A stretch of DNA of 64,000 bases from Escherichia phage EI-SP-GF. Position 1 is the first letter of the stretch, and each line of letters opens with the position of its first letter. Shown here in pieces: positions 7,363 through 43,800 of this stretch. A program made the translations under genes and the position numbers. A model generated the notes under the pieces. The model had not been told where the DNA came from, did no database searches, and worked only from the letters and a program-made list of their open reading frames with translations. The stretch is taken from sequence record OR992645.1; one strand, written 5' to 3'.

Positions 7363-7391
7363 TTGCTTTTGATGTATCTTTGTGGTAAAAT
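7363..7391 (+). promoter_or_regulatory. sigma70-like promoter TTGCTT-N17-TAAAAT with TGn extended -10
   Basis: ttgctt 7363-7368, 17-nt spacer ending tgg, taaaat 7386-7391; RBS gaggaa and ATG 7410 follow. Confidence 0.45.
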
Positions 7392-7409
7392 ACATTAGTG
7401 AGGAATATA

Positions 7410-7882: not shown

Positions 7883-8308
7883 GTGGCAGCAGGTTATAAG
7901 CTGATAGGAAAGAACAGGCTAATACCTCGTAAAACATTCAAAGGTCGCCACAGAGTGTATAACAAAACAGTTGGTGGTCCTTTTGCTAACGAGGGGTTAG
8001 AACTTGAGTATGAAGAGTTTGATGTCTTAGAGTGTGTTGTGCAGCCGTTGACAGGAAGGGCAGCTAAAGATTACTCCTCTCAAATAAATCCTGAGGGTGA
8101 CAGACAGTACGAGGCTTTTACAGTTTACTCCTCAACCAAGTTGTATAGTCCAGACGAAGGAACATATGCAATGGCTGATCAAATTCAACTGCCTGACATC
8201 CGTGGTGACCTGAAGTGGTTTACCGTTTTAAAATGTGATGCTTATGTCACGTCTGGTGGTGGAAGATATAGATTTTTTGTGGTAGAAGAGCCTGAAGGAG
8301 AAAACTGA
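7883..8308 (+). CDS. head-tail joining protein (hypothetical)
   Basis: 141-aa ORF, GTG start with AAGGGGG RBS. Confidence 0.45.
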   Translation: MAAGYKLIGKNRLIPRKTFKGRHRVYNKTVGGPFANEGLELEYEEFDVLECVVQPLTGRAAKDYSSQINPEGDRQYEAFTVYSSTKLYSPDEGTYAMADQIQLPDIRGDLKWFTVLKCDAYVTSGGGRYRFFVVEEPEGEN

Positions 8309-8859
8309 TGGAAGCTTTCGAAAAAGTTTTTTCTGATCTTGAAACAACCATCGCTAAGCTTGTCAAGGTTGCCACAGGAAGAACTGTAGTTCTGGCAGAA
8401 AGCTCTACCATACCGAAGCCGGAAGGTGAGTTTGTACTTTTGCAAACCCTGGCGATCAATCCCACCACTTGGGAAGATAATGAGTTTCAAGATGCGGAGG
8501 GTAATGCTTACGTCACCCACAGTTATACTGTTACTTATCTGTTAACAGCTTATCGCGGCAGGGCATATGCTGCACTTAGCAGAGTATTGCAAGCAATAAA
8601 CCTTCCAATGTTTTATGACAAGTATTTCCCTCTGGGATCGTGCTTTGCCTACTCTAACAATTCAACAATTTCACCTCAAAGGGTGCCGTTGAATAAGCAG
8701 ACGTATGAAAATAGAGCCACCGTAATGCTGACATTTAACGTAAGGTTTGTTGAGACAGACATTGGGGCTTTTGAGGATCTTCAGGGAATTAAGGCTGAAA
8801 TAACCACACACTTCCCTTCACCCAATTCTGGTAAAGCGGTTACAGACAGTGGTCAGTAA
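8308..8859 (+). CDS. tail completion / neck protein (hypothetical)
   Basis: 183-aa ORF, start overlaps previous stop (TGATGG), immediately upstream of sheath-like gene. Confidence 0.45.
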   Translation: MEAFEKVFSDLETTIAKLVKVATGRTVVLAESSTIPKPEGEFVLLQTLAINPTTWEDNEFQDAEGNAYVTHSYTVTYLLTAYRGRAYAALSRVLQAINLPMFYDKYFPLGSCFAYSNNSTISPQRVPLNKQTYENRATVMLTFNVRFVETDIGAFEDLQGIKAEITTHFPSPNSGKAVTDSGQ

Positions 8860-8874
8860 TCGTTATAATTGTGT

Positions 8875-8891
8875 AGTGTAATGATTACACT
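8875..8891 (+). promoter_or_regulatory. perfect 8-bp inverted repeat AGTGTAAT-g-ATTACACT downstream of a TATAAT box (8864-8869)
   Basis: palindrome read directly in the intergenic region before the sheath-like gene; candidate operator or RNA hairpin. Confidence 0.3.
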
Positions 8892-8931
8892 GCGTGTTTG
8901 ATATCCGTGCACAGATATTAAGAGGAAACAA

Positions 8932-10308
8932 ATGCCATATTTAGATAAAGTGGTAGATGTTACAGTTAACCTCGGAACCCAACCTATTGACACTGTAGGT
9001 TTCGAAACTCCCCTGTTCATCGCTATCCACAACAACTTTACTGAGCGAGCTCGCGTATATGCGGAGCTGGATCAGATGGTGGAAGATGGTTTCGCACAAG
9101 GCTCTGCAGCGTATGAGTTTGCAGCAAAAGCTTTTGGTGGTGTATTCCCTCCACAATATGTTATGATCGGCAGACAGGCCAAAGAAAAAACCACTGTAGA
9201 TTTTAAAGGTATTGCTGCCGCAGCTGATACTGATGTCGTAATGACTATTGCAAAAGGTGGCTACAATACCTCTCTGATAGTGCCTATCTCTGGTGGAACA
9301 GGTGCAACTCAGATTGCAGAGTCAATGAAGACTAAAATCGAAGCAGATGATAATTTGGACGGTATCACTGTAGAGGCTGAAGAAGGTGTTATCACCATCA
9401 CTGGTGACTGCACTGTTGGTTATCATACTGGTAACTATACAATCAAAAATATCGCCAATTCTGAAAAACCTTCTACAATAGTTGATAAGATCAATGCTGA
9501 GCGGGACAATTGGTACTTCCTGTGCCATGAAGACCACACCGACATTGAAGCATGTGCTAAGTGGGCTCAGGCCAACTACAAGCTGCACGTCTACTCTACT
9601 GCAGAAGATGTGACTGGCAAAGACAGTAACATCGCTACCAAACTGAAAGCTGCACAATATGACAGTGTTGGCATGTACGATCCTCGTGCAGATAAGGACT
9701 TCCCGGAGGGTGGTATCATAGGTGCTATGGCATCCAACGATCCGTCCTACGGTGACAGCTTGCACTTAAAACAGATGCCAGGTGTGATTGCACCATCTCT
9801 GACTTTAACTCAGCGTATGGCGATTTGGGAAAACCACGTTAACTTCTACAGAATGATTAACGGTGTTGGCGCTTTCTGGGAAGGTAAGTGTGCTTCAGGT
9901 CAGTATGCAGACGCTATTCGTTTTGCACACTGGATCAAGTTCAGATCTGAAGAATCCATGTTTGGGTACATGCATCGCCGCTCCAACATGGGTTTAAGCA
10001 TGAAGATGTCTGATGATGATCTTCCGGTTATCAAGTCTGTTCTGATGAACAACCCGATCAATACTGGCATTAAGAATGGCGCGATCCTGACAGGTTTTGA
10101 CGAAGACAACAATGTGTTCTACGACCCGATCATCACAGTTCCTAAACGTGCAGAGATCCCAACCAATCAGTTGGCTGCTCGTGTTCTGGAAGGTGTGAAA
10201 GTAGAACTGGTGTATAACAACGCCCTGCACTTCGTTCGTATCCGGATCAACGTCCTTCTGGACAAGGTTGGTTCTAAATCCACCAATGCTGTTGCAATGA
10301 CTGAATAA
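8932..10308 (+). CDS. tail sheath-like major tail protein
   Basis: 458-aa ORF followed by a 157-aa tube-sized protein, chaperones and tape measure; baseplate spike/wedge genes downstream support a contractile tail. Confidence 0.5.
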   Translation: MPYLDKVVDVTVNLGTQPIDTVGFETPLFIAIHNNFTERARVYAELDQMVEDGFAQGSAAYEFAAKAFGGVFPPQYVMIGRQAKEKTTVDFKGIAAAADTDVVMTIAKGGYNTSLIVPISGGTGATQIAESMKTKIEADDNLDGITVEAEEGVITITGDCTVGYHTGNYTIKNIANSEKPSTIVDKINAERDNWYFLCHEDHTDIEACAKWAQANYKLHVYSTAEDVTGKDSNIATKLKAAQYDSVGMYDPRADKDFPEGGIIGAMASNDPSYGDSLHLKQMPGVIAPSLTLTQRMAIWENHVNFYRMINGVGAFWEGKCASGQYADAIRFAHWIKFRSEESMFGYMHRRSNMGLSMKMSDDDLPVIKSVLMNNPINTGIKNGAILTGFDEDNNVFYDPIITVPKRAEIPTNQLAARVLEGVKVELVYNNALHFVRIRINVLLDKVGSKSTNAVAMTE

Positions 10309-10792: not shown

Positions 10793-10810
10793 GAGCACAC
10801 TTCAGCATAA

Positions 10811-10841
10811 GCCTCACCTTCTGGTGGGGCTTTTTGCTTTT
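10811..10841 (+). terminator. rho-independent terminator after tube gene
   Basis: gcctcacc-ttct-ggtggggc stem-loop followed by tttttgctttt. Confidence 0.65.
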
Positions 10842-10882: not shown

Positions 10883-10911
10883 TTGACAATGCACCATAAT
10901 CATGGTAAAAT
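10883..10911 (+). promoter_or_regulatory. sigma70-like promoter TTGACA-N17-TAAAAT with TGn
   Basis: ttgaca 10883-10888, spacer 17 nt ending tgg, taaaat 10906-10911. Confidence 0.5.
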
Positions 10912-10954
10912 ACACAAATATGGTGCACAACATGACTAATAAGGATGCTATAAA

Positions 10955-21187: not shown

Positions 21188-24100
21188 ATGGCTGATATTA
21201 AAGTTGTCAGAATTGAATCTCTTCCTGCCACTACCGCAGTGACAGAGGATGATTACCTGGTTGTTCAACAACCAGACCTGACCCGTCGTGTAAAAATTGG
21301 CGATGTTGTCCATGTGGATGGGACTGTTTCTCATGTAATCTCCTTTAAGGAAGGTGGTAAGTTAAACGGCCCAATGGATTTTGCCTACTTCGAAGAGGAA
21401 GATCTATACCTGCGTTGGAAAGGCGAATTTCCACACACTGTCCCTGCACTGTCTTCACCATATTCTGACGGTGGTATTACTGACGCTGCGTGGATGGTAT
21501 ATACAGATCCGTCCTTAAGGGAGGAGCTGGAGTCTACCATTGGCGCATCTATGATCATGACAGCCGAAGGGCAGTCTGTCCAAGATGTAATGGATGTTAC
21601 TGTTCAGACAGCCAACGATGCTAAAGCACTTGCACAGCGGGTAGATTTTGGCACAGTGCATACTGTAGGCGATGTTATTCACCTTGTCAACTTTGTTGGT
21701 CCTGCAGTTATTGAAGAGGGAAGAACTACTAACTACCCTTCTGAAGCGGCGGGTGAAAAATTTCTGAACGGTGTGGTATCTCGTCGTGATACTACAACTG
21801 TTGATGGCATTTTCCGTGGCGCTACCTCCGGAGCCATGTATACCATTGCAGTAACCAACGGTGTAGCAACAACAAAAAGAATAGCACTTCGTGACGAATT
21901 TAAACGCCTGGAGGCAAACAACCCAACAAGAACAGTTATCCGTGCCGGAGATGATTTAAACACAGCAGGGTACTTGCAGCTTGATGCAACAGGCCGTTGG
22001 GGTATGTGGAACCAACAAACAGCTTCGTGGCAACCTCTTGCTATAGAGCAAGGCGGCACAGGGGCCAGAGATGCCGCAGGTGCACGCATTAATTTAGGGG
22101 CTTTCTATAAGCAACGTGCAGCCCTTGAGTCAAATTTTAATATCAATAACTTGACTGGTAATCAGGATGGTATATACTACCAGCCGATGACTGCTTATGC
22201 AACTGAGGCAAATGGTTACCCTGCAGGTTCTGGTGCTGGTCACTTGATTGTCTGGCAGAACAATGCTAACGGCGGTACAGGTTGTCGTCAGGAATACTAT
22301 CCATTCTCTAACGTAGATGTTTGGTATTTGAGAACCTATCAGGCCAACACAAATCAGTGGACTGCATGGCAGCCAATGGTCAGACCCCGTAACGATGAGA
22401 CCTTTAGATCGCACATCGGTCTTGGGTCTAGGAATTCTCCTACCTTCGGGCACCTTTACCTGTCTCAAAGCTCGGCTGATGTTAAGTCGGCATCAGGTAT
22501 TGTTAACGGGGACAAATACAGCGCTGACGGTGTCCTTGAGCATGGGTATAGGATCTACTCTGAGGTAAGAAACGACAATAAGGCTTGGTTGACAATCCAC
22601 CTGCACAAAGGCGCAAAAGGATCTGAAACTCATAGATATTTAGGCTTCCGCGAGGATGGGGTCTTAGATTGTCCTAAATATATGCAGGTTGGTGATCTGA
22701 ACGGTCAGCTGGCAAACTGGGGACTTGGAGAATGGATCCGCAGTTCAGGAGCAGAAAGAGGTTTCTGGGGATCTAAGAAAGCCGCCAAGATGGTTATCTG
22801 GGATGGCGGTATGGACGAGCAAGGTGAAGGAACGCTTGAGTGGGGTGTTTATAACAACCGGAAAGCCAAATGGGAACCACTACCGATAGCTTGTGGTGGT
22901 ACCAGTGCCAGGACTGTAGGGGATGCTCAAGCACAATTCAGAATCCCTCTGGCATCAGGCGCTAGACCATATGTAAACCTGCCTAGAACTGCAGCTATGC
23001 AGGACGGTAAGTATTATCCTATTATCGTCAGAACTGACCCCAACTTTGCAGCAACTATCGGGACAGATTTAACCATTGTCACCAGATCTTCTTCTGGCGG
23101 CGACCCAATGAACTGTGCTACACTACAGTGTCACTACAGAACTGGTGGCTGGACAGACAGAGGTGATTCTTTCCAAGGGGTTATTAATTTCTACCAAAAC
23201 GAGAGAGCAATCCTCGGATGTGTATCTCCAACCAGAGGTAAGCAGGAGTATGTTGCATTCTATGTAGAGGCACGTGCATTCCCTGTTACAGTATATGCTG
23301 GCGCTACTGTAATAGAAGTGTCAACCAGGGAGGCTGATTGGCAAGTAGGCAACGTGACAGGTAACCAAGATGGTGTCAAGTTCTGTGCTCCTCTGGAATC
23401 TGCAGATTTGAGTCTTGCAATCAAAGGTGATGATGTAACAAACACCAGACCTCTGGTTGAGTTCAAAGGAACATCAGGTTTCTACACTGGTGGTGGAACT
23501 ATGTGGCACTACCTGGGGACTCCTGAACGCTATGCAGTGATGAGCAAAACGAACATGCCTAAAGTCGAGCTGTGGGCAGACGGTCTTGACTATTTGTGCT
23601 ACGGCGGTCCTAGAAAGGCATTATTCTCTAACGCGGGATTCCAGTGTGCATCTGACGGAACAGAGGATCTAACTAACGGCACGTTTACCTCTAAATGTGG
23701 TAATGGTGCTGGCCTTAAAGGCCAAGCAGAGTTCAGGTCTACTCCAGAAGCTGGTCAAGTTATTGTTCGAGATGTTGTGGGAACAGCTCATAGATTCTAC
23801 AACTTCAACAAAGATGGTACTTTCTCAGCCCCAGGTGGTTTTGTATGTCATACTGGTGGAGACTGGAACAACCAGTTCGGGCCTAATAACCCGTCAAAAA
23901 TAATGGCTGGCAACGTCAACGGACCAGAAGGTTCGATGGTTGTTGGTGGGTTGTCTGTGGCGTTTTCTGGAAACTATGCCTTCCAAATGGCTGGTCGCCT
24001 TGATCAGTTATACACCAGATCTATTGAGGGTGGTAACCACAGGGCGTGGAACAAAGTTATTCAGCACCGTGGTCAAGGTCTGGGGACAGAAGACCTTAAT

Positions 24101-40869: not shown

Positions 40870-43800
40870 ATGTGTGGTCCGAACGGGGCGATAATTGCAA
40901 CGCAGAGGATGCACAAGCCTAATGATCAGCAACTTGTTAACGTATTCTACGGGCAAGATGTCTGGGGAGATGATACATGGCGTTCCTTAAATATTACCTA
41001 CACCCATGAAGTAATAATGGCTCGTGGGTACGGAACAAGTGGCATTTTCTTCAATAATGGTACTAAGCAGTATCGCGGATTCTCTCGCAACCTGTGCAAC
41101 GATATTGGAGCACAATCTGCAAACAATAATCCTCGCGCCAATTTTATCCATTATCAAGCTCTTGCTACAGCCAAGTATGTTGAGCAACGACTGCCAGTTA
41201 GCTGGACAGAGAGTGTTTACTTCCAGGGTATTCATAGAGAAGGTTTTTTAGGGACCTTTACCGTTGTTAATGGCAAACTTTGGTGGTCAGGCATCCCAAG
41301 GGGAAGTTTTGCAGGATCTAATAACCTGTTTGGCGGCAGACTTAACAGCCAGGGGTTCACAGAGGTTCCTGAGAATTGGTATAAAAATGTCCCAGTAGAT
41401 AGTTGGGATATTGATGATATTTTTGACGTTAACGGTGTTAGCAGTGTTAGCAATATTTACATCGGTGACACGGTCAAGATGAAATTGAAGCCTCAACCAG
41501 AGGGGGCCACGTTCATTATTGACAAGATTGAACTGGTAAATGCTGCAGGCACGGTTGTTACAGATGCAAATTACCAATTCTCCACCAACTGGAACCACGG
41601 CGGGGCCAACGAGGTTGTTGTTACTCAGTATAACAGAAATGTTAACAGACGCGGTCTGTACTCTGTAAAAATAACCTATCATGACAAGCATGGCACGGGC
41701 AGAACTCACACAACAAGGACTTTGAACTGGAACACTATAGTTCCTGCGTATCCGTCTGATGGTAAATGGCACACTGTAGGCAGAAACAAACAGTTCCATG
41801 TTAACGATACTGTGTACTTTGGGCTTAACGCTGCTCAGCCAGCTCCAGAAAGCGATACAGCGTATATGGTTCGGCTGCACAGGCAAGATGCTGGGTCTGT
41901 TACCTACGATGTGACCCAAGAGATCTACAATCAGAGACGCTCCACGTATGACAATATTGTGAAAACACAAGCCTTGTGGGAGTTCAACCCTAACGGCAAA
42001 GGTGGTAAAATGTTGCAGGTTAACGAGCAAAACGGAACATCGTTAACTGTCCACGAACACCCAGACCCTTGGCCTGACCCTGGTAAACCTAACTCAGGTG
42101 CTCGCACACTGCAAGTTGTCAGTCATGATGTAGGCTATTTTGGGATACGTTGGGAGGCCACAGTAAAATATGCCGATGGGACAACAAACAACATAGGGAT
42201 TACGCTTGGTGGCACTAGTGAGAGTAACTCGCTGAAAATTGCCTACACTCCTAGAGGTATCTCTATTGACAACATGGATATAGTCCGTAACGGTTACGGA
42301 GATGTAAACATCAAAGTTACTCTTGGTGAGCATCTTGGCGGAGAAAGGATCATTATGTATGCCTTTGATCATGACCCTCGAACCAACGGAACTTATGCAA
42401 ATCAGGCCTGGAGTTACCTGATAAGTGCACCTGAGCCGAATACTAAAGAATTCTACTACGGTATGAAGCGAGATGTGTGCAAGAAAACAGGAACACACGA
42501 CTGGATTGCTATCTGTGTTAAAGATGAGAGAACAGCTTGGGATGAGCCTGTTAACCGCTGGTTCATAGGTATTCCCACCAGAAGTGATAAATACGTTGAA
42601 GAATATATTGTATGTATGGGCGGCACCAACCTCAACATGTGTTGGAACGAGGACGCAAACAAATATTCTGATTATGACTATATGAGGGACTACTCTTGTA
42701 ATCAATGGTTCAACCAATCCGGGTATGCTAATAGACAGTCAAGGGTAAACCCTGCAATCTTCACAGATACGCAGGTTTTCTTGACAAAACAGGCCAACGA
42801 GGTTCAGACCTTCAAGAACAACTATGATCCTAACAAGTGGTTCTACAACTGTTCCGGAGCAATATTCTGGGGGCCTGGTGAACTGCCTGATAGTGGTTCT
42901 TGCTTCGAGGCTGCAACCTATGGCAGTGACTATATTATGGGGCAGGTCAAGAAGTACAAGATGATTCCAGGACCTGAAACTTTAGGTAATGCTGTTGACC
43001 CGTACATAAATTTCGCAGCTATACATGCTAATATGGATGGAGAGAGATATCCGTTTGTTGTTCCGTTAACTTGGGGGTACAAACGTGTCGTGATGATTAT
43101 TAAATGCGATCTGATCGGGAAGCAAGTTCTTGCAGAAAATGGAACATCCACACACCCTTTTGAAGTTGCTCTGCACTACCAGTTTGCAGACTCACCATAT
43201 GCAGGGGATAAAAGAATATCCGACACAGACTCTAAGCGCTGTAAGAAAGTTTTACTTGGAGCCGGGTGGTGGTGGTACGAGTTTGATTTGACAGATAAGT
43301 TCACAGATGATACCAAAACTCTCACAGGTATCCGTCTGGACCTTGGTGAGAACATGCATAAAAGTGTTTGTGATGGTACCTACGGTGACCCTACGGTATA
43401 TCTAAAGTATGTTTCTCTTGAGCATCGCGAAGAGGATGTTTACGGTCCAAAACTGAGATTGTTTGGCGCATGGATTGCCAAAGACAGAGTAGGTATGGGT
43501 AAGAAGGTGAGAGGCTTCTTGATAGATGTAGGGACAGAGGACATGCTGGTTAATGCAGTATGGCCTGAATTACCCGGAACTCAGTGGAACAACTCTGCCA
43601 AATCTATAAACTGGTACAATATTCACAGAGCTATGTGGACCACTAACTGCTACTTGTGGAGAGAGCTTAACGATCAGGCCTTTGGCTTTAGTAACGGCAG
43701 AAGGATGGCGATCATTTGCTGGACAACATTGCAAAGATGTTATGACCATGACTATGAGATTGGTGGTAGGGCATGGAAAGATATCAGGGACAGAGTTATA

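Follow-up and report, generated by a model that had tools for sequence, protein, structure and literature searches.

How a single operon could supply about six copies of a tail terminator and hundreds of copies of sheath and tube proteins is the question posed by the tail genes of Escherichia phage EI-SP-GF (sequence record OR992645.1), in which a TATAAT hexamer and a perfect palindrome stand in the untranslated gap just before the sheath gene. Typing of E. coli O157 makes wide use of rV5-like phages, as do therapy cocktails, and the control of their late genes has hardly been studied. The initial annotation of the site had left three readings side by side: a promoter reduced to its -10 box, a regulatory site for an activator or a repressor, and an RNA processing hairpin. 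In what follows, the window is the whole 64,000-nt stretch of DNA that was analysed.

Genomic context and transcription unit

The window comes from an rV5-like coliphage (Vequintavirus). The region studied is 97–99% identical to more than 110 such phages, with vB_EcoM-ECP26 as the best match (99.3% identity). Seventeen GenBank records labelled 'Campylobacter phage' (MG0656xx) are 98–100% identical to rV5-like coliphages across the region; their host labels are probably mistaken, or else the records come from contamination. The genes and signals that frame the gap are the following.

7383–7392, + strand: TGGTAAAATA extended -10 motif, published for rV5 as 'P056', upstream of gp56
8308–8859, + strand: gp54, tail/neck terminator protein (PF23961 Phage_tail_terminator_9, 6e-21; phrog_4528; equivalent to rv5_gp054)
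8920–8934, + strand: Shine-Dalgarno sequence AAGAGGAAAC and sheath ATG, read directly and the same in both clades described below
8932–10308, + strand: tail sheath gene (phrog_205 tail sheath, 1.5e-118; equivalent to rv5_gp053)
10809–10832, + strand: intrinsic terminator 3' of the tube gene (rV5 t052), which ends the transcription unit

The gp54 stop codon (8857–8859) and the sheath ATG at 8932 delimit an untranslated gap of 72 nt (8860–8931), and the tube gene starts 10 nt after the sheath gene. Motif and terminator scans found neither a terminator nor a motif-class promoter between 7383 and 10809. Since TGGTAAAATA is present at 7383 and its next copy, at 10903, comes only after the terminator at 10809, gp56, gp55, gp54, sheath and tube make up one unit, which the motif at 7383 likely promotes. 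The unit runs from a neck protein (gp56), a head completion protein (gp55) and the tail terminator (gp54) to the sheath and the tube. The gap lies between genes for proteins of which a virion requires only a few copies (neck, head completion, tail terminator) and the two genes, sheath and tube, whose products it requires by the hundred.

Kropinski et al. (2013) described putative late promoters of rV5 with the consensus TggTAaAAtA, and TGGTAAAATA is the motif that they proposed (PMC3606486). Allowing at most one mismatch, we found it at 21 sites as compared with 5.9 ± 2.1 expected, 19 of the 21 being on the + strand. This enrichment and strand bias support the published putative late/extended -10 motif as a real signal. 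Copies are found, for example, at 1205, 7383, 10903, 25054, 30564 and 36895, and several lie inside ORFs.

The TATAAT hexamer and the palindrome

Two elements of the gap were read directly from the sequence.

8864–8869, + strand: TATAAT, a -10-like hexamer, in a single-stranded AU-rich linker (8860–8872)
8875–8891, + strand: perfect 8+1+8 palindrome AGTGTAAT-g-ATTACACT, the core of hairpin H1 (see below)

Both lie exactly where the initial annotation had placed them, separated by the five bases TGTGT (8870–8874), and its remark that no convincing -35 accompanies the hexamer was borne out: the best hexamer 18 nt upstream is TTACAG, with 2/6 matches, and the promoter scan returned no site ending at 8869. 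The TGn extension is also absent, TATAAT being preceded by CGT. A count of perfect palindromes (arms of 8 bp or longer, loops of 0–4) gave 10 in the window versus 5.8 ± 3.1 in Markov shuffles; for a loop of 1 the counts are 4 and 1.05, respectively. TATAAT occurs 11 times on the + strand of the window. Taken each alone, the hexamer and the palindrome are statistically unremarkable. What makes the site non-random is its conservation, together with the pairing kept in a diverged clade, and not the perfection of the palindrome.

A genome-wide search for the same palindrome had been suggested as a check. It gave no further copy in the window or in the remaining 79 kb of rV5 (about 143 kb), even with up to 3 mismatches, and on the strength of this single copy the palindrome was rejected as a repeated regulatory site. 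The half-site AGTGTAAT was found 7 times on both strands of the same 143 kb; two of these seven belong to the palindrome itself, as its arms, and there is no enrichment of the half-site.

Other small elements were noticed during these scans. Two more perfect palindromes, CTGGTTGTTCAACAACCAG and TCCGTAACGGTTACGGA, lie inside long ORFs, at 21257–21275 and 42284–42300. The consensus promoter in front of gp51 (TTGACA at 10883–10888, TGGTAAAATA at 10903–10912) is bracketed by a 9-bp inverted repeat (TGCACCATA at 10890–10898 and TATGGTGCA at 10919–10927), and in its geometry this arrangement (10883–10927) resembles an operator more than the sheath palindrome does. Finally, a mini-ORF (ATG ATT ACA CTG CGT GTT TGA, 8882–8902) begins in the loop of H1. 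It lacks a Shine-Dalgarno sequence, the sister clade does not keep its length, and it is probably meaningless.

Two hairpins predicted in the leader RNA

Folding of the transcribed gap predicted two hairpins.

8873–8893, + strand: hairpin H1, 9-bp stem with loop UGA (8882–8884), predicted in RNA
8899–8920, + strand: hairpin H2, 7-bp stem, C.A mismatch, G-C pair and UGCA loop, predicted in RNA

The H1 stem consists of G8873-C8893, U8874.G8892 and seven core pairs, with a possible G.U extension to 8870–8896. The 3' end of H2 adjoins the Shine-Dalgarno sequence. Pair probabilities of H1 were 0.88–0.98 in contexts from 86 to 500 nt, and those of H2 were 0.66–0.87 in the window and at least 0.9, up to 0.97, in the sister clade. 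The predicted dG of H1 was -9.9 kcal/mol as compared with -2.6 ± 1.8 for shuffles. Most of this stability is contributed by the outer pairs (8873–8874 with 8892–8893), present in read-through RNA (-9.9 kcal/mol); the palindrome core alone gave -4.4 kcal/mol, and H1 is AU-rich and of modest stability. The two-hairpin segment was more stable than its shuffles in both clades (p = 0.009 and 0.001). The fold of the whole 86-nt leader was no more stable than dinucleotide shuffles (z = -0.66).

Several specific roles were considered for these stems and set aside. An RNase III processing site was rejected because the stems are too short: such a site takes about 20 bp of double-stranded RNA, or about two helical turns, and H1 has 9 robust pairs (13 at most) and H2 has 8. 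A role of the hairpins in holding the Shine-Dalgarno sequence and the AUG open was unsupported, since 8920–8934 had an unpaired probability of 0.31 versus 0.385 ± 0.107 when the gap was shuffled; 75% of the gap shuffles were at least as open there as the wild type, and the sister clade behaved in the same way. A conserved pairing of the start region with a partner was rejected as well, the predicted partners being different in the two clades. Rfam covariance models gave no match to 8860–8931, even at E <= 10.

Conservation within Vequintavirus

Of the 116 Vequintavirus records, 115 share one and the same 84-nt segment (8851–8934). The sole variant, phiWec191, carries A8868G, which converts TATAAT into TATAGT. 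In contig L026, which is about 90% identical to the window, the gap is conserved at 72/72 positions. The flanking segments of this contig are lower, with 93.5% identity for gp54, 90.6% for the sheath gene and 83–98% for promoter or terminator gaps (P056 90.2%, t052/P051 91.5%, t049 83.5%), so that the 72-nt gap is the most conserved segment of the region. The whole gap is under strong purifying selection.

A diverged sister clade

Homologous leaders were searched for by pattern scans of IMG/VR and of metagenomes, by a sheath-protein-profile scan and by phage BLAST. Two leader types were found in all, each of them invariant. The only diverged lineage with a homologous leader is a sister clade of contigs from IMG/VR and metagenomes (L006–L009, L022, L037, L039 and L040; 117–140 kb), whose sheath protein shows 70% aa identity. 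It gave no megablast match in the phage collection and appears to be a genus-level group of Vequintavirinae.

In this clade the -10 region changes from TCGTTATAATTGTGT to TCGTTCTCCATGT: TATAAT is lost and a TTCTCCAT-type sequence is found instead. Upstream of the gp56 homologue, a full TTGAAA-N17-TATAAT promoter with a TG extension is present. The palindrome AGTGTAAT-g-ATTACACT becomes AGCGTAAT-g-ATTATGCT, with C-G in place of T-A at pair 3, where both bases have changed, and G.T in place of G-C at pair 4. In the flanks of H1, TGTGT/GCGTG, with one G-C and four G.U pairs, gives way to CATGT/ACTTG, in which four positions form Watson-Crick pairs and one is mismatched. In total, 6 of the 13 H1 pairs differ; 5 of them still pair and 1 is broken. 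Among the 5 pair-keeping changes, which come from two lineages only, 1 is compensatory (T-A to C-G) and 4 are one-sided (G-C to G.U, and three G.U to Watson-Crick). H2 reads U-GAUAUC-C-G-[UGCA]-C-A-GAUAUU-A in the window (8899–8920) and U-AAUAUC-C-UG-[UGCA]-CA-A-GAUAUU-G in the sister clade; two pairs are changed on one side and still pair, and a U-A pair has been inserted. The unpaired linkers are altered and carry indels, and the AU-rich linker is not kept.

RNAalifold recovered the identical 9 pairs of H1, with 1 compensatory and 2 one-sided changes. In simulations of H1 covariation (at least 12 of 13 pairs kept), p ranged from 0.009 to 0.18 according to the assumed transition bias, for two lineages; for H2, which MAFFT misaligns between the two leader types, p was 0.17–0.40, for two sequence types only. 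With just two lineages, the covariation of the stems is suggestive.

Hairpin, promoter, terminator or operator

Most likely, the palindrome is the first of two small conserved RNA hairpins before the sheath gene and not a promoter combined with an operator. Several observations argue for this RNA reading. Both stems are kept at about 70% identity while the TATAAT segment is lost. The G.U pairs work in + strand RNA only, since the other strand would hold C.A mismatches, and these pairs break the dyad symmetry of the DNA. The two-hairpin segment outperforms shuffles in both clades and H1 forms in contexts of up to 500 nt. The purifying selection on the gap points in the same direction, as does the context, an uninterrupted unit with the tail terminator upstream and the sheath and tube downstream, and the equivalent gaps of other Vequintavirinae genera likewise hold hairpins. 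Weak covariation, the modest stability of H1, the loss of the AU-rich linker in the sister clade, the hairpin-free gap of Mydovirus and the negative result on the openness of the ribosome-binding site count against it. The initial proposal of an RNA hairpin thus fits, with a stem that is kept in the 70% clade, forms in folds and is one of two, while its promoter and operator readings found no support: TATAAT is lost in the sister clade, the site is off-motif and unpublished, and the palindrome is unique.

The promoter reading deserves consideration all the same, although we regard it as unlikely. RNA polymerase, with or without a phage factor, would start at about A8875/G8876, 6–7 nt past TATAAT, and the sheath-tube mRNA would begin with the H1 core, which would shield its 5' end and boost output over the neck genes. 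Such an internal -10-only promoter would fit the perfect TATAAT with G at -14, a predicted start that falls on the opening bases of the palindrome, the invariance of the segment in the genus, and a need for sheath and tube products far above that for the upstream genes; P2 and Mu sheath genes, moreover, have their own activator-dependent late promoters with a poor -35. Against this, the site offers just 2/6 matches at -35, has no TG and is unlisted by the promoter scan. The sheath-proximal site, CGTTATAATT, has four mismatches to the 10-nt motif TGGTAAAATA, and the 41 promoters published for rV5 do not include it (Table S4, PMC3606486). The sister clade swaps TATAAT for TTCTCCAT, yet keeps both hairpins and the full promoter of the gp56 homologue, and the sole natural variant hits the hexamer (TATAGT). 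In addition, the outer pairs 8873–8874/8892–8893 lie upstream of the predicted start, so that the transcript would keep the -4.4 kcal/mol core only. A literature search found no published transcriptome of any Vequintavirinae phage. A T4-type late promoter was rejected: the sheath site reads TATAATTG, 6/8 with respect to the late box TATAAATA, and rV5 has no homologues of gp33/45/55 according to Kropinski et al. (PMC3606486).

H1 could also be a leaky intrinsic terminator or a 3'-end protective hairpin, ending or stabilising the neck-gene transcript while read-through reaches the sheath gene. A lenient scan, and only this one, flags 8870–8896 (3 G-C of 12 pairs, tail UUUGAUAU); the tail in question is TTTGATATCC here, and its counterpart in the sister clade is UUGUUAAUAU. 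At the equivalent position, other genera have a hairpin B that is GC-rich with a tetraloop, and in the Certrevirus-like contig L063 TTTTCTT comes after it. This possibility nevertheless seems quite improbable given 3 G-C pairs, a U-tract of UUU only and a dG of -9.9 as compared with -11.5 to -24.7 for annotated phage terminators, which have T runs of at least 4–5. Attenuation just before the most abundant tail protein would oppose the stoichiometric need, and no motif-class promoter is present downstream.

The prospect that a dimeric phage or host protein binds the 17-bp dyad as a DNA operator, controlling transcription through or from the site, appears remote. The perfect 8-1-8 dyad has a typical size for operators of helix-turn-helix dimers, its half-sites GTGTAA/TTACAC resemble those of the GalR/LacI family, the sister-clade dyad is 7/8 symmetric (12/13 if extended), and H2 is palindromic too. 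The palindrome is, however, unique in about 143 kb and its half-site is not enriched. Its outer specificity bases change in the sister clade from GTG to GCG/GCA, as RNA pairing through G.U predicts; the spacing is 1 bp short of the GalR operator; and a separate protein would be required for each of the two neighbouring palindromes, which are unrelated. No repressor is known to act here in this lytic phage, there is no adjacent gene for a cognate binding protein, and the position of the palindrome, downstream of the -10 box, is not one from which activators work. Sites for the host factors CRP, Fur, TyrR, LexA and GalR were rejected; GalR alone shows a resemblance, with the defects of spacing and outer bases just mentioned.

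It is very unlikely that the palindrome has no specific function and arose by chance in a gap whose conservation has another cause, such as the context of the ribosome-binding site. A 64-kb sequence is expected to hold palindromes of this size by chance, covariation is statistically weak, and Mydovirus has no hairpin at this place. Such an origin would nevertheless have to accommodate a gap conserved at 72/72 next to coding DNA that is 90–93% identical, two stems that survive at about 70% identity beside unpaired linkers with substitutions and indels, and significant stability in both clades.

A possible role in tail gene expression

Returning to the RNA reading, which we favour, we propose as the most plausible role, if one short of probable, that H1 and H2 act within the polycistronic neck-to-tube mRNA as a stability or processing determinant for its sheath-tube part. 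The palindrome would then be the DNA image of stem-loop H1, and H1 and H2 together would structure the untranslated 72-nt gap of a late mRNA that starts at the TGGTAAAATA promoter at 7383 and ends at terminator 10809, past the tube gene. The AU-rich single-stranded linker 8860–8872 (UCGUUAUAAUUGU) may serve as an entry site for an endonuclease of the RNase E type. After cleavage, H1 would be located at or near the new 5' end, followed by H2, and the two hairpins would shield the sheath-tube segment from 5'-end-dependent decay, so that this segment would outlast the upstream part. What the analysis shows is that the stems exist, are conserved, are specific to one strand and occupy this place in the genome; the processing and the stabilising effect are what we infer.

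A more elaborate role, with the leader as a control module for tail stoichiometry, we hold to be rather improbable. It could take two forms. In one, a Vequintavirus-specific internal promoter would give a transcript born capped by H1; in the other, a phage or host RNase or RNA-binding protein would recognise the two-hairpin RNA and uncouple sheath and tube from the neck genes. If the leader is merely a stabilising stem-loop, it is an element of an ordinary kind and a matter of routine annotation. Since the published regulatory map of rV5 shows nothing at this position, H1/H2 would add one element to it, and the 72-nt leader, as the most conserved stretch of the region, is a well-delimited place in which to map 5' ends and mutate the hairpins.

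Comparison with other genera and known systems

The TggTAaAAtA promoters of rV5, from the same genus, resemble the sheath site in that a late structural gene is preceded by a -10-type element. The sheath site differs from them at 4/10 positions, has no TG and is missing from Table S4 (PMC3606486).

In Seunavirus (PVP-SE1/4MG), Henunavirus, Certrevirus and A7_1-like phages, the gaps between gp54 and the sheath gene measure 60–130 nt and contain 3–4 stable hairpins with many G.U pairs. These hairpins (A–D) have the same position and strand as H1 and H2, and the ribosome-binding site AGAGGA(A/T) is common to the window and those genera. Sequences and hairpin numbers differ, the hairpin B of those genera being GC-rich with UUCG or GNRA loops, and the homology of H1 to hairpins A–D is uncertain. 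The equivalent gap of Mydovirus is 32 nt long and hairpin-free, so that a phage of this kind can in principle do without the element. Structured leaders in front of the sheath gene thus recur in the subfamily without being universal.

Further motifs were seen in the gaps of these relatives. In Seunavirus, Henunavirus, Certrevirus and A7_1-like phages (contigs L010, L013–L021 and L050–L066), a conserved hairpin YRGCAC-loop-GTGCTG is followed by the motif GGTCAATAA(Y); the near-identical GGTCAGTAATCG at 8850–8862 of the window includes the gp54 stop codon. The GC-rich hairpin B of L063 with its TTTTCTT looks like a true terminator, and the others do not. In L049, from a clade of sheath homologues with 53% aa identity, a 6-bp hairpin upstream of position 701 precedes the ribosome-binding site of the sheath gene; its palindromic loop AGCU is reminiscent of H2 with its UGCA loop.

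Activator-dependent late promoters are found upstream of the sheath genes of P2 (PF, Ogr) and Mu (C protein). The sheath leader is similar in that a usable -10 with a poor -35 lies directly upstream of a sheath gene. In P2 and Mu, however, the dyad bound by the activator is located upstream, around -55 or -35, whereas the sheath palindrome would cover +1 to +17, and the -10 of the sheath leader is not conserved in the sister clade.

In E. coli, the processing of papBA and the 5' hairpin of ompA are examples of mRNA stem-loops that set differential expression within operons. H1 has no sequence similarity to these elements, is short (9–13 bp) and AU-rich, and its role is a predicted one. The likeness lies in the arrangement, with a stable hairpin in an untranslated gap, immediately after an AU-rich single-stranded stretch, between cistrons of low and high demand in the same transcription unit.
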